Assembly (NCBI GenBank): GCA_030597945.1
Contig: JAUVQW010000001.1
Location: 1 to 30,539, forward strand
Reading direction: 5' to 3'
Source: Actinomycetes bacterium
GTDB lineage: Bacteria > Actinomycetota > Aquicultoria > CAJVYJ01
Length of the DNA stretch: 30,539 nt
The notes beneath the pieces are model-generated. The model was not told where the DNA came from, searched no databases, and saw only the letters and a program-made list of their open reading frames with translations. Positions 4,627 to 12,992 of this stretch are shown here, piece by piece (positions within the stretch are counted from its first letter, which is position 1; every line of letters starts with the position of its first letter). The position numbers and the translations under genes are program-made.

Positions 4627-6453
4627 CTACTCGACCGTCACGCTTTTTGCTAAATTACGGGGCTGATCGACATTACATCCTCTTTCTTTAGCAATAAAAT
4701 AAGACAGAAGCTGAAGCGGGATAACGCTTAAGATCGCTGATGACATTTCATCTGATTCGGGGATGACAAATACGTCATCGGTTAGTGCTCTAATCTGGTT
4801 ATCATCTGAATCAGTGATAGCAATGATGCTACCACCTCTGGATTTTGCTTCCTGCATATTGCTTACTATCTTTTCGAAGACTTTTCCTTTTAAGGCAATA
4901 GCTAAAACGGGGACGCCATCATTGATAAGGGCTATCGGACCGTGTTTCATCTCCCCGGCTGGGTAGCCCTCGGCATGAATATAGGATATTTCCTTTAACT
5001 TTAGAGCCCCTTCCATAGCTACTGGATAACCCACCCCTCTTCCGATAAAGAGAAAGTCATATACATCATGATATTTCTTTGCCCATTCTTTGATCGTCTC
5101 CGCTTTTCCCAATATCTCATCTACTTTTTCCGGTACTTTTGAGAGAGATTCAGCTATTTTTTGAAAAAAGGAATCATCCAAACCATTTTTTTGCCGGGCG
5201 ATAAACATTGAAAGCAAGATCAGCGCCGCTATTTGGGATACATGTGTTTTTGTCGCTGCTACCCCGATTTCGGGACCGGCGTGCGTGTAAACTACTCCGT
5301 CTGCCTCTCTCGTTATCGAACTGCCAACAACATTGGTCACGGCGATAATCTTTGCTCCCTTTTCCTTAGCTTTTCTTATCCCCGCCAATGTGTCGGCTGT
5401 CTCTCCCGACTGAGTGATGGCTATTAGAAGGCTCTTATCGGACAGCACAGGTTCGCGGTAGCGAAATTCCGAAGAACAATCTATCTCGACAGATATGTGG
5501 GCCCATTTCTCAATCGCTAGTTTCGCTATCATTCCAGCATGAAGAGATGTACCGCAAGCAACGATGAAAATTTTATCGATATCTTCTATTTTTTCTTTAT
5601 CGAGCAAAAGGTCATCAAAATTAACTTTGCCATCCTCATCTAATTGTCCCCGCAGCGTATCTTGAATAGCGCTTGGTTGTTCATATATCTCTTTTAACAT
5701 GAAATCGGCGAACCCGCCTTTTTCTGCAGCTTCAATATCCCACTTGACTTCAATGGAGTCACGCTTAATTAAAACGTCATCCCCTGATGTGATCTGATAC
5801 CCGTCTTGGGCTACCTCCACCAGCTCTTCGTCTTCGATGATTACGATCTTTCTAGTCTGGTCGATAAGTGCGGGGATGTCTGAAGCTACAAAAATTCCGC
5901 TTTCAGCGATACCAAGGACCAGAGGGCTGTCTTTTCTGGCAGCGATCAATTTCGAGGGATCTTCGCTTGAGATCACAGCTATTGCATAGGAGCCCTTGAT
6001 CCGGCGAAGTGCCTTTTTTACCGCTTCTTTAAGATCGCCGTTGAAGTTTGCTTCTACCAGATGTGCCAGAGTCTCAGTATCGGTCTCGGAAGTAAATTCG
6101 TGCCCTGAATCAATAAGCTCATCTCTTAGCTCATGCCAGTTCTCTATGATCCCATTATGGACAACCGCGATCTTTCCTGAACAATCAGTATGGGGATGAG
6201 AATTTCTCTTTGACGGTTCGCCGTGGGTGGCCCACCTGGTATGCCCGATTCCTAGCCTACTATCAAGTTTATCGTGATCGACGATCTTTTCGAGTTGATC
6301 CAAATTACCTTTTTGTCTAAGTACTGTTAAGCTTCCATTGATAGACAAAGCCAACCCGGCTGAGTCGTAACCCCTGTATTCGAGTCTCTTTAATCCCTGT
6401 AAAAGTAGCGGGGTGGTCTTTTCTTTTCCTATGTAACCTACGATTCCACACAT
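4627..6453 (-). CDS. glmS: Glutamine-fructose-6-phosphate transaminase (isomerizing)
   Basis: MCGIVG N-terminal nucleophile, LEYRGYDSAG, GHTRWATHG, SQSGETADT-like motif, C-terminal PRNLAKSVTVE. Confidence 0.98.
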   Translation of the reverse strand: MCGIVGYIGKEKTTPLLLQGLKRLEYRGYDSAGLALSINGSLTVLRQKGNLDQLEKIVDHDKLDSRLGIGHTRWATHGEPSKRNSHPHTDCSGKIAVVHNGIIENWHELRDELIDSGHEFTSETDTETLAHLVEANFNGDLKEAVKKALRRIKGSYAIAVISSEDPSKLIAARKDSPLVLGIAESGIFVASDIPALIDQTRKIVIIEDEELVEVAQDGYQITSGDDVLIKRDSIEVKWDIEAAEKGGFADFMLKEIYEQPSAIQDTLRGQLDEDGKVNFDDLLLDKEKIEDIDKIFIVACGTSLHAGMIAKLAIEKWAHISVEIDCSSEFRYREPVLSDKSLLIAITQSGETADTLAGIRKAKEKGAKIIAVTNVVGSSITREADGVVYTHAGPEIGVAATKTHVSQIAALILLSMFIARQKNGLDDSFFQKIAESLSKVPEKVDEILGKAETIKEWAKKYHDVYDFLFIGRGVGYPVAMEGALKLKEISYIHAEGYPAGEMKHGPIALINDGVPVLAIALKGKVFEKIVSNMQEAKSRGGSIIAITDSDDNQIRALTDDVFVIPESDEMSSAILSVIPLQLLSYFIAKERGCNVDQPRNLAKSVTVE

Positions 6454-12489: not shown

Positions 12490-12536
12490 TTGACAATCTC
12501 TATGTGGATATATAATATTATAGCTATAAGTCTTAT
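12490..12536 (+). promoter_or_regulatory. arsR promoter with overlapping palindromes (candidate autoregulatory operator)
   Basis: TTGACA at 12490-12495. The -10 is TATAAT at 12511 (15-nt spacer) or TAATAT at 12513 (17-nt spacer). Palindromes ATAATATTAT (12512-12521), TTATAGCTATAA (12518-12529) and ATAAG-T-CTTAT (12526-12536). SD GAGGTGA. Confidence 0.65.
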
Positions 12537-12550
12537 TGAGGTGATAATAT

Positions 12551-12838
12551 ATGCCAGGTTCGGAAGATTTCTTCCACGCGATGTCTGATAATACTAGACA
12601 AGAGATATTGGTCTTGTTGGATAAGAAGCCTAGATGTGTAAGAGATATAGCAAAAAAATTTTGTATCTCCCAGCCATCGATATCTAGACATCTGTCAGTA
12701 CTTAAAAATGCCGGCCTGGTAAGTGATGAGAGAAACGGCCAAAAGATTATTTATTCTCTAAATCAAGATTGGTTGCGCAGCTGTTGCGAGAATAACTTTG
12801 CCAGGTTTAGCTGTTGCAAAAGTCTTTTTAAATCTTAG
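12551..12838 (+). CDS. ArsR/SmtB family metalloregulator with C-terminal Cys pairs
   Basis: FHAMSDNTRQEIL, wHTH CVRDIA...SQPSISRHLSVLKNAGLV, ERNGQKIIYSL; C-terminus SCCENNFARFSCC. Confidence 0.92.
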   Translation: MPGSEDFFHAMSDNTRQEILVLLDKKPRCVRDIAKKFCISQPSISRHLSVLKNAGLVSDERNGQKIIYSLNQDWLRSCCENNFARFSCCKSLFKS

Positions 12839-12859
12839 ATTACTAAGGAGGTGACGTGG

Positions 12860-12922
12860 ATGAAAAGATATATGGTACCTCGAATAGCCCATTGTGAGTC
12901 TGGTTGCACTAGACCGTCCTGA
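12860..12922 (+). CDS. Unannotated 20-aa Cys-containing peptide MKRYMVPRIAHCESGCTRPS
   Basis: Near-perfect SD AAGGAGGTGA (12845-12854), 21 nt after the arsR stop, ATG at 12860, TGA at 12920-12922, terminator downstream. Below the ORF-track length cutoff. Confidence 0.6.
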   Translation: MKRYMVPRIAHCESGCTRPS

Positions 12923-12958
12923 GCACGACGCGAAACTACTCATCAGGTTAAAAAGTTA

Positions 12959-12992
12959 AGGCCCCCGAAATTGGAGGGTCTTTTCTTTTTTT
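12959..12992 (+). terminator. Intrinsic terminator of the arsR-peptide transcript
   Basis: Stem AGGCCC-CC / GG-(A)-GGGTCT with loop GAAATT, followed by TTTCTTTTTTT; lies between convergent genes. Confidence 0.8.

Follow-up and report, generated by a model that had tools for sequence, protein, structure and literature searches.

We describe a micropeptide gene and an RNA pseudoknot that occur together downstream of an arsR-type repressor gene in a stretch of 30,539 nucleotides (nt) from an actinomycetotal genome (contig JAUVQW010000001.1; this whole stretch is the window). The short open reading frame (sORF), confirmed at 12845-12922 with its Shine-Dalgarno (SD) sequence, is very probably a genuine conserved coding gene under protein-level selection. 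With the same high confidence, the pseudoknot that overlaps its 3' end is real and coupled to it. Both are apparently undescribed, and the micropeptide family spans phyla. The locus is probably a two-gene transcription unit with a promoter, an ArsR/SmtB-type repressor gene, the micropeptide gene, and a terminator, and the partnership with ArsR is local, not general. A first-pass annotation made from the letters of the DNA had the coordinates and the sequences of the SD, ATG, and stop right; the pseudoknot was absent from it.

Conservation of the micropeptide gene

At the class level, we searched the ArsR protein in 41 genomes (40 relatives and the window's own) and found 15 loci in relatives, with ArsR identities of 51-58% over the full length. 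These loci belong to the class Ca. Aquicultoria (Actinomycetota), and one relative's locus is identical to a Ca. Aquicultor secundus record. The first-pass annotation had proposed to look downstream of arsR homologues for a conserved frame and a conserved SD, and all 16 orthologous arsR loci of the class present both: an SD of the GGAGG/GGGGG type and a short open reading frame (ORF) follow the arsR stop codon. The core of these peptides is [KR][YF]M[VIL][PR][RPA]x[AS]HCxxG[CK]; examples begin with MKRFMIPRMAHCDDGC, MKRYMVPRVAHCESGC, or VKRFMIPRTAHCDAGC, or read MKKFMVPRVAHCTEGC and LKKYMLRPVAHCCEGKGL up to the stop. At the 16 loci, the sORF is the sole cargo of the arsR transcription unit, and the more distant ArsR paralogue loci that we checked (L018-L031) have no such sORF. 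A hidden Markov model of the peptide retrieved one or two copies each in 23 of 48 class genomes.

Across the taxonomic order of the window's genome, the gene order is kept: 5-formyltetrahydrofolate cyclo-ligase, arsR, sORF, and a convergent polysaccharide deacetylase (L003, L005, L006, L007, and L017; 11872-14097 in the window). In another family of the class, arsR-sORF is flanked by a sugar kinase and LemA. Since the flanks change between families, arsR-sORF moves as a unit. One class family (L010-L015, L072, L106, and L141) carries the peptide ...AVAHCCEGK/R, with an adjacent Cys pair and without the distal Cys.

The window's genome also has a second copy (contig C121 of G000, L035:727-858; peptide MKRFIIPRVAHCESGCRPKS) with its SD, pseudoknot, and terminator. 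Immediately upstream of it is a gene for a membrane-anchored TlpA/ResA-like thioredoxin (149-685), queD, queE, and queC come after it, and no regulator adjoins it. Moreover, in three class genomes a variant ending in HC(G/D)EGH lies directly 3' of P-type ATPase genes (L280, L283, and L285; G001:C64, G016:C11, and G046:C53), followed at L285 by a DUF2933 gene.

Beyond the class, we ran the degenerate DNA pattern ..[KR][YF]M.......[AS]HC..G on one genome per species (185,579 species). It gave at least 120 matches, which are not a census; about 35 would be expected by chance over the whole collection with equiprobable bases. Among the matches listed, 116 of 120 are ORFs of 12-43 amino acids (aa; median 24) with an SD-type 4-mer (GGAG, GAGG, AGGA, or GGGG, at most 17 nt from the start), and about 100 also bear the downstream RNA motif, which lies outside the pattern. 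The listed matches come from about ten phyla, with Ca. Omnitrophota holding the largest share, and include Planctomycetota (Kuenenia, Brocadia), Desulfobacterota/Thermodesulfobacteriota, Actinomycetota, Bacillota (Moorella, Pelotomaculum), Patescibacteria, Bacteroidota, Aminicenantes, Margulisiibacteriota, Auribacterota, and alpha- and gamma-Proteobacteria. The family core is [KR]-[YF]-M-[VIL]-[PR]-[RPA]-x-[AS]-H-C-x-x-G-[C/H/K]; Ala precedes His in > 90% of the sequences listed, and the last ligand position changes from Cys to His in several lineages.

With ATG, CAY, TGY, and GG fixed by the pattern, the invariance of M, H, C, and G in the pattern-found set is circular. For the coding signature, we used two sets chosen without the peptide pattern, one anchored on arsR (15 distinct sequences) and one of metagenome sORFs anchored on the pseudoknot (17). 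Codon-position entropy was 0.64/0.66/1.45 bits (positions 1/2/3) in the arsR-anchored set and 0.68/0.64/1.50 bits in the pseudoknot-anchored set. Amino-acid identity in frames 0/1/2 was 0.53/0.29/0.35 and 0.54/0.27/0.29, respectively, at a nucleotide identity of 0.60 in both. In these sets, the first Cys and Gly never vary and His does so once (to Arg); Met varies (T, Q, F, R, S, and N also occur), and C, H, K, or A fills the last ligand position. The first-pass annotation had named frame-independent conservation as evidence against its own proposal; what we found is frame-specific, with the variation mostly at third codon positions. Altogether, the 16 arsR loci, the 116 pattern sORFs among the matches listed, and this coding signature bear out the unannotated micropeptide gene that it had proposed.

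It had recognized no described family, and neither did our searches. With three peptide variants and E-values up to 10, Pfam and NCBIfam returned no families. Profile searches retrieved 111 short matches from 5.8 billion proteins, without any precomputed Pfam domain, and 189 matches from 1.84 billion representatives, all of them unnamed or "hypothetical protein". Cluster look-ups of the homologues gave no name, and text searches of the literature library available, with peptide strings, pseudoknot strings, and the topic, found nothing relevant. Domain fusions offered no clue: the matches of 100-390 aa are mis-extended ORFs, in which the motif still starts after an SD-like stretch. Two proteins with tandem MLNPITHCSDGSK repeats are something different from the micropeptide. 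A remnant of a longer gene was ruled out, the frame being short in every lineage.

A pseudoknot at fixed distance

The pseudoknot has the consensus GUCC-YG-RGCA-N-GAC-NNNAAAC-UGCYC and is of the H-type: stem 1 pairs positions 1-3 with 12-14, and stem 2 pairs positions 6-10 with 22-26. Among the matches listed, it begins exactly 8 nt past the second Cys codon at 99 of 116 loci, and the 8-nt linker, variable in sequence, shows no indel in any of these 99. The covariation test used 99 sequences (86 distinct) from the same matches: 95.1% of the cells are paired, and 6 of the 8 pairs present two-sided changes (41 cells). Compensatory examples are G-C to A-U or C-G at 1:14, U-A to C-G at 2:13, and G-C to A-U at 6:26, 7:25, and 8:24. 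None of 500 shuffles reached these values, and slid partners were 27-44% paired. Positions C3, C4, A10, G12, and A18-A20 are invariant.

In the window copy, stem 1 joins 12916-12918 to 12927-12929 and stem 2 joins 12921-12925 to 12937-12941, with one C-A mismatch (12924/12938) that is also seen in several other lineages. In the second copy of the genome (GTCCTAAACAGGACGTTAAACTGTTT), stem 2 is fully compensated. Some lineages have tandem pseudoknot pairs after the sORF (L010-L015, L072, L106, and L141; L214).

Among the matches listed, the sORF stop falls inside the pseudoknot in 80 of 99 loci, just before it in 14, and beyond it in 5. Inside, it is UGA at positions 5-7 –as in the window–, UGA at 11-13, or UAA at 17-19. 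As stops fall at such varying places, the C-terminal tail of the peptide is dictated by the RNA.

The pseudoknot is missing at two arsR-linked loci (L004 and L016) and in a subfamily from anammox Planctomycetota and Bacteroidales (L067, L100, L111, L130, L137, L148, and L152), with peptides of the form x-I/N-W-x-[RK]K[YF]ML[RP]PVAHC[RS][SGT]GC. In this subfamily, the stop mostly comes right after GC (L100 and L152 extend one to three residues), and at six loci a gene for a membrane protein of about 100 aa follows some 30 nt on. Another sORF variant placed before the pseudoknot, starting with MRWMFPHATHCSTCGS, has a C-x2-C-G knuckle replacing C-x2-G-C (L164, L211, L223, L246, and L266).

At the gathering score, Rfam 15 has no family at the pseudoknot, whether the window or the 16 sORF loci examined are considered; with E-values relaxed to 5-10, the window and 15 phage-type loci likewise gave none. 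Several known functions were tried and rejected. For programmed -1 frameshifting, no slippery heptamer X XXY YYZ lies 5-9 nt before the pseudoknot, where the sequence reads GGN TGY NNN plus the variable linker. For selenocysteine insertion or readthrough at TGA, the stop position varies (TAG before the pseudoknot, TGA or TAA inside it) and the extensions are unconserved. By inspection, position 8 and helix II misfit a hammerhead-like core (CUGA...GAAA). As an intrinsic terminator, the pseudoknot has a T4+ run within 14 nt in only 15-19% of the copies listed. The queDEC genes behind the second copy suggested a preQ1 riboswitch, but there was no model match and no general que linkage; they are apparently there by coincidence, since que is not among the 25 commonest families in the 100 downstream neighbours of the matches listed.

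The pseudoknot also occurs without the peptide. A metagenome scan with the pseudoknot pattern gave at least 130 copies. Among the matches listed, about 26 of 130 follow the His/Cys sORF or a variant, and the remaining copies (about 100) are on phage-like contigs. Their neighbours include ribonucleotide reductase, PhoH, terminase, scaffold protein, RtcB, and Kyanoviridae Gp96, and lone pseudoknots sometimes lie within tRNA gene arrays; one contig has five copies. Examples are L183:2267-5278, L167, L238, L243, and L267, among L160-L279. Copies are on the same strand as the flanking genes. In 42 of 74 cases among the matches listed, they start 5-24 nt past the upstream ORF stop (mode 6-8 nt); distances to the next start vary widely. 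The base right after the pseudoknot is A in 64% of the copies listed, and the next 9 nt are G-poor. Given this placement just after stop codons, a terminating ribosome would abut the lone pseudoknot. Roseobacter phage CRP-207, the nearest named relative of one metagenome locus, was checked and has no pseudoknot.

Layout of the locus

In the window, the features of the unit are as follows.

12490..12518, plus strand: sigma-70-like promoter of the arsR-sORF unit, -35 TTGACA, 17 nt, -10 TAATAT (consensus scan)
12511-12522: AT-rich palindromic sequence over the -10, TATAATATTATA, with arms ATATATAAT at 12508-12516 and ATAATATAT at 12544-12552 (inverted-repeat scan)
12551..12838, plus strand: ArsR/SmtB-family repressor gene, 95 aa (Pfam HTH_5, E 2.8e-16)
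12845..12854, plus strand: Shine-Dalgarno sequence AAGGAGGTGA of the sORF (sequence)
12860..12922, plus strand: micropeptide gene, MKRYMVPRIAHCESGCTRPS and TGA (sequence, ORF list, conservation)
12908..12915, plus strand: linker ACTAGACC, 8 nt, from the second Cys codon to the pseudoknot (fixed-offset listing)
12916..12941, plus strand: H-type pseudoknot GUCCUGAGCACGACGCGAAACUACUC, 26 nt (covariation)
~12958..12992, plus strand: intrinsic-terminator-like hairpin (stem 12958-12982) and U-run (RNA fold)

Between the arsR stop and the 3' end of the deacetylase gene at 12991 there are 152 nt. The ATG at 12860 starts 5 nt after the SD and 8 nt after its GGAGG, and opens 20 codons that end at the TGA at 12920-12922; the listed ORF (12851..12922) opens instead at an in-frame GTG inside the SD, upstream of this ATG. 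His11 is encoded at 12890-12892, Cys12 at 12893-12895, Gly15 at 12902-12904, and Cys16 at 12905-12907. With a gap of 21 nt between arsR and the sORF and no terminator in it, the simplest reading is that both are on one transcript. The AT-rich palindromic sequence over the -10 may be the operator of this unit.

Two descriptions of the first-pass annotation hold in part. It had called the SD the best in the region, and AGGAGGTG is indeed found once in the 30.5-kb window, but one match is also expected by chance (44/100 in shuffles). Thus, the SD alone proves nothing and the case rests on conservation. It had also described the sORF as filling the space between arsR and the terminator; the sORF does lie there, but its last two codons and stop overlap the conserved pseudoknot. 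The terminator scan flagged the minus-strand reading of the hairpin at 12958-12992, which may work in both directions, since the convergent deacetylase gene shares it.

The ArsR-type regulator

By curated cut-offs, the window regulator scores as a generic ArsR/SmtB metalloregulator. It reached 59.6 bits against Pfam HTH_5 (cut-off 22), which places it in the ArsR/SmtB family, and 84 bits against NCBIfam NF033788 (cut-off 55); the 86.2 bits against the SdpR subfamily NF033789 are under the cut-off of 100 and do not place it there. The nearest solved structure is SrnR (7p6f, E 2.5e-14), which works in complex with a separately encoded nickel-binding partner, SrnQ, without known relatives (PMC7055735). 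Helix 3 of the window regulator contains C29, and the protein ends in a CC-x8-CC cluster (SCC-x8-SCC, 12778-12835). Residues C29, C79, C88, and C89 are kept in 14 orthologues; in the L016 orthologue the final Cys pair is gone and the sORF is still present.

Classical arsenite-sensing ArsR proteins have Cys-Val-Cys in helix 3 (ELCVCDL). This CVC site is absent from the window protein, which has PRCVRDI with a single Cys. The AfArsR-like type binds As(III) through three C-terminal Cys; the window protein has its conserved C-terminal CC-x8-CC, but there are no ars genes nearby and no specific model match. The metalloid or arsenic link proposed in the first-pass annotation is unsupported: the CVC site is missing from the regulator, its scores are those of a generic family member, and ars genes are missing.

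Genomic company

We tallied the sORF neighbours from the matches listed (100 downstream and 98 upstream). Downstream, Rrf2 regulators account for 32 of 100 and LemA for 3; ferritin, hemerythrin, desulfoferrodoxin, catalase, and nitroreductase are also found. Upstream, we found the ArsP_1 permease (10/98), YHS (5), ArsR-type regulators (4), and Metal_resist/LTXXQ (3). The first-pass view of the sORF as the sole partner of ArsR is right for the class (16/16), but elsewhere just these 4 of 98 upstream neighbours are ArsR-type.

Operon examples are sORF-Rrf2-hcp-sufC-sufBD-...-desulfoferrodoxin-flavodiiron protein and cusB-cusA-x-redoxin-YHS-sORF, and at a Patescibacteria locus the sORF is followed by a DsbD-Redoxin fusion. 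An AhpC-like gene also recurs near the sORF, along with desulfoferrodoxin, flavodiiron, and catalase genes. The shared theme of the neighbours is thiophilic-metal export, thiol-disulfide exchange, and the Fe-S/oxidative-stress response; ars genes are not part of it.

The Rrf2 partners bear a C-x4-C-x6-C-x5-C pattern. In Omnitrophota, the sORF-Rrf2 units have their own TTGACAA promoter (L040, ~5520-5690 oriented; similar in L057, L131, and L135). By inspection, L040 has a perfect inverted repeat, ATGATAC-N7-GTATCAT, between the -35 and the -10; this repeat is probably the operator of Rrf2. Gene-calling programs stretch the Omnitrophota sORF into its promoter.

Possible mechanisms

Our leading reading, although we hold it with less than even confidence, is a stress-induced micropeptide that would act in trans as a metal- or redox-active His/Cys molecule, with its translation coupled to the pseudoknot. 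The Cys-rich repressor (C29, CC-x8-CC) would keep its own promoter shut until a soft metal or thiol oxidant modifies it. Derepression would then yield the arsR-sORF mRNA –the terminator-free gap suggests co-transcription– and the strong SD would drive peptide synthesis. The peptide could act as a His/Cys ligand set, probably in a dimer whose ligands would be four thiolates and two imidazoles, or through a reversible dithiol, C-x3-C, and would either buffer or hand on a thiophilic metal or join thiol-redox repair. This step is suggested by the invariant residues, the Cys-to-His swaps at the last ligand position, and the companion genes. The pseudoknot would meet the mRNA entry channel of the ribosome once the second Cys codon has reached the P site; because it starts exactly 8 nt after that codon, peptide synthesis or release would be coupled to its unfolding. 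The outcome may be a pause, tuned termination, or mRNA stability. Action in trans is favored by the pseudoknot-free subfamily ending in GC-stop and by the Cys/His exchange. Moreover, the sORF is often operon-terminal before a terminator, including both copies of the window's genome, so that nothing is left downstream to regulate.

Several points weigh against this reading. The function is deduced from the genes nearby and from the chemistry of the residues; for a 20-mer, one His with two Cys makes a sparse set of ligands, and the contexts are heterogeneous, with most single neighbours unrelated. The circularity of the M/H/C/G invariance applies here too, with just the two smaller sets unbiased. 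The invariant 8-nt spacing, the conserved residues before His, and the free C-terminal tail fit a nascent-chain mechanism in cis, and in about a third of the loci among the matches listed the sORF is the first cistron before a regulator, as a leader would be.

A cis-acting sensory leader or arrest peptide is the main competitor, and we consider it possible but clearly less probable than an effector in trans. The conserved 12 residues would act in the exit tunnel while the pseudoknot holds the ribosome with the second Cys codon in the P site; a metal, a thiol-reactive ligand, or the redox state would set the stall, changing translation of the Rrf2 operon or stability of the arsR message. The first-pass annotation had listed a sensing leader peptide among its options, and the fixed-spacing pseudoknot that it lacked bears directly on it. 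Textbook ribosome footprints would place the edge of the pseudoknot roughly at +12 relative to the P-site Cys codon, as in frameshift and readthrough pseudoknots. The linker of constant length and variable sequence in 99/99 pseudoknot-bearing loci, the stop inside the pseudoknot at varying positions (80/99), which suggests a tail shaped by RNA and not by the peptide, and the free N-terminal length all agree with it. So do the first-cistron position with its own promoter before Rrf2 (32/100) –these counts are again among the matches listed– and the lone pseudoknots 5-12 nt after stop codons, which would engage terminating ribosomes. However, a leader-peptide position exists in the sORF-Rrf2 loci and not in the window or the second copy, where, as in many Desulfobacterota loci, a terminator follows and then no same-strand gene; a stalled ribosome would be about 50 nt ahead of the terminator stem, too distant to affect it. 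The peptide is found without the pseudoknot in one subfamily and at L004 and L016, the Cys-to-His exchange at the last position resembles ligand chemistry, and there is no slippery heptamer. A more elaborate form, in which the nascent H-C-x2-G-C chain and a triplex pseudoknot make up a translational sensor and metal capture or oxidation decides ribosome release, we regard as doubtful. Under such a sensor, the pseudoknot would be a general, undescribed "post-stop-codon" element of bacterial and phage mRNAs acting on terminating ribosomes.

The remaining explanations rank lower, in the order given here. SrnQ with SrnR and SdpI with SdpR are models for a protein that partners a regulator. The peptide could likewise bind the Cys-rich regulator beside it, which is ArsR in the window and Rrf2 at other loci, and serve as its co-sensor or anti-repressor, through a shared metal or Fe-S site or by sequestration. 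The strict linkage in the class (16/16), its absence beside other ArsR paralogues, SrnR as nearest solved relative working with SrnQ (PMC7055735), and SdpR as the best NCBIfam subfamily, though under its cut-off, speak for it. The C-terminal CC-x8-CC could share ligands, and the Rrf2 partners are Cys-patterned too. We judge it improbable nonetheless: two thirds of the loci among the matches listed have no adjoining regulator, the second copy in the window's genome is regulator-free after a thioredoxin gene, and L016 retains the peptide with an ArsR that lacks the C-terminal Cys pair. Besides, one peptide could serve both ArsR and Rrf2, whose folds are unrelated, only in a non-specific mode. 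A precursor of a ribosomally synthesized and post-translationally modified peptide (RiPP), matured by enzymes encoded elsewhere, for instance cut before His to expose a hook like that of nickel superoxide dismutase (NiSOD), has very little probability. The NiSOD nickel hook, HCDLPCG, is cut after Ala and has the same H-C-x3-C spacing; the small conserved core with Cys, the Ala before His in > 90% of the sequences listed, and the oxidative-stress genes recurring nearby are compatible with it. Against this option of the first-pass annotation, no conserved maturase adjoins the sORF among the matches listed: radical-SAM, YcaO, lanthipeptide, peptidase, or SodX-like neighbours are not conserved, the neighbouring families are diverse, and a radical-SAM gene lies two genes upstream at one locus only. 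No Sod_Ni Pfam match appeared even at E 10, and the HCCEGK and HC..GH variants break the hook pattern. Least probable of all, and scarcely credible to us, is that there is no gene and the RNA element explains the conservation with an incidental open frame. Conserved RNA does overlap the 3' end, where nucleotide conservation is frame-independent; but upstream of the pseudoknot one frame is conserved and most of the variation falls on the third position of codons, while no locus lacks an SD and a start codon. Furthermore, some lineages have the peptide without the pseudoknot, and about 100 of 130 pseudoknot copies among the matches listed have no peptide.

A trans-acting effector thus stays first in our ranking. 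As the operons handle copper-/zinc-type efflux, thiol-disulfide exchange, and Fe-S/oxidative repair in anaerobes, the peptide could be a missing small part of metal and redox homeostasis. Peptides of 20 residues escape gene callers and curated libraries. With its range from Patescibacteria and Omnitrophota to Actinomycetota, Bacillota, and Pseudomonadota, this one would be one of the most widespread bacterial micropeptides without a name. Its strict spacing to a covarying pseudoknot offers a testable link between a nascent peptide and mRNA structure. Finally, the lone post-stop pseudoknots in phage-like contigs point to an undescribed RNA element at translation termination or acting on mRNA fate.

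Comparison with known systems

Some resemblances are in the ligand motif: the NiSOD hook (H-C-x3-C), the YHS/TRASH knuckle (FCSxxC), and Sco (CxxxC). NiSOD has an N-terminal HCxxPCGxY after leader cleavage, a four-helix-bundle body, and an adjacent SodX peptidase. Our peptide is like it only in the H-C-x3-C spacing and the preceding Ala; it has no Sod_Ni match, ends 4-10 residues past the motif, and has no enriched peptidase neighbour. Unlike PqqA, MftA, and SCIFF, it shows no recurrent maturase gene among the neighbours listed.

Other systems share the arrangement of the genes. As in SmtB-SmtA and AzuR-NmtA, a repressor of the ArsR/SmtB family is found with a small Cys product; there, the metallothionein is induced by the stress that it relieves. 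Metallothioneins have about 55 aa with 9-10 Cys in a metal cluster and are usually divergently transcribed, whereas the window product has 20 aa with one His and two Cys, is downstream on what is probably the same transcript, is coupled to a pseudoknot, and has no Pfam match. SrnR-SrnQ of Streptomyces griseus is similar in that SrnR is the nearest solved relative of the window regulator and has a small, separately encoded partner. SrnQ has roughly 100 aa; our peptide, in contrast, is a 20-mer, would not be expected to resemble SrnQ in sequence, and is also found without any ArsR-type gene. CopZ next to metal-exporting P-type ATPases is likewise a small Cys product beside efflux genes, as the micropeptide is beside P-type ATPases and cusBA-YHS. 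However, CopZ has about 70 aa, a ferredoxin-like fold, and an MxCxxC site, whereas the micropeptide has H-C-x3-C and is not long enough to fold by itself.

At the RNA level, the preQ1-I aptamer is also a short hairpin of similar size with an A-rich tail and a 3' end pairing with the loop; here, by contrast, stem lengths are reversed (3 and 5 bp), and there is no Rfam model match and no general association with queuosine genes. The recoding pseudoknots of luteovirus BWYV (frameshift) and MuLV (readthrough), which are compact H-type triplexes, share with ours a size of 26-28 nt, a loop 1 of 1-2 nt with an invariant C, an A-rich loop 3, and a position 5-8 nt downstream of the decoded codon. Ours differs from them in having no slippery heptamer, no conserved in-frame extension, several stop positions, a bacterial or phage host, and no Rfam entry.

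Finally, arrest and leader peptides (SecM, TnaC, SpeFL, and MgtL) share with the micropeptide a short ORF, a conserved C-proximal segment, and a free N-terminal length; their function depends on where the ribosome stands on structured mRNA, as may that of the micropeptide. The known ones lie upstream of the gene that they control and are taxonomically narrow, whereas the sORF is often operon-terminal and spans about ten phyla. In place of their alternative hairpins, its partner RNA is a pseudoknot at fixed distance.

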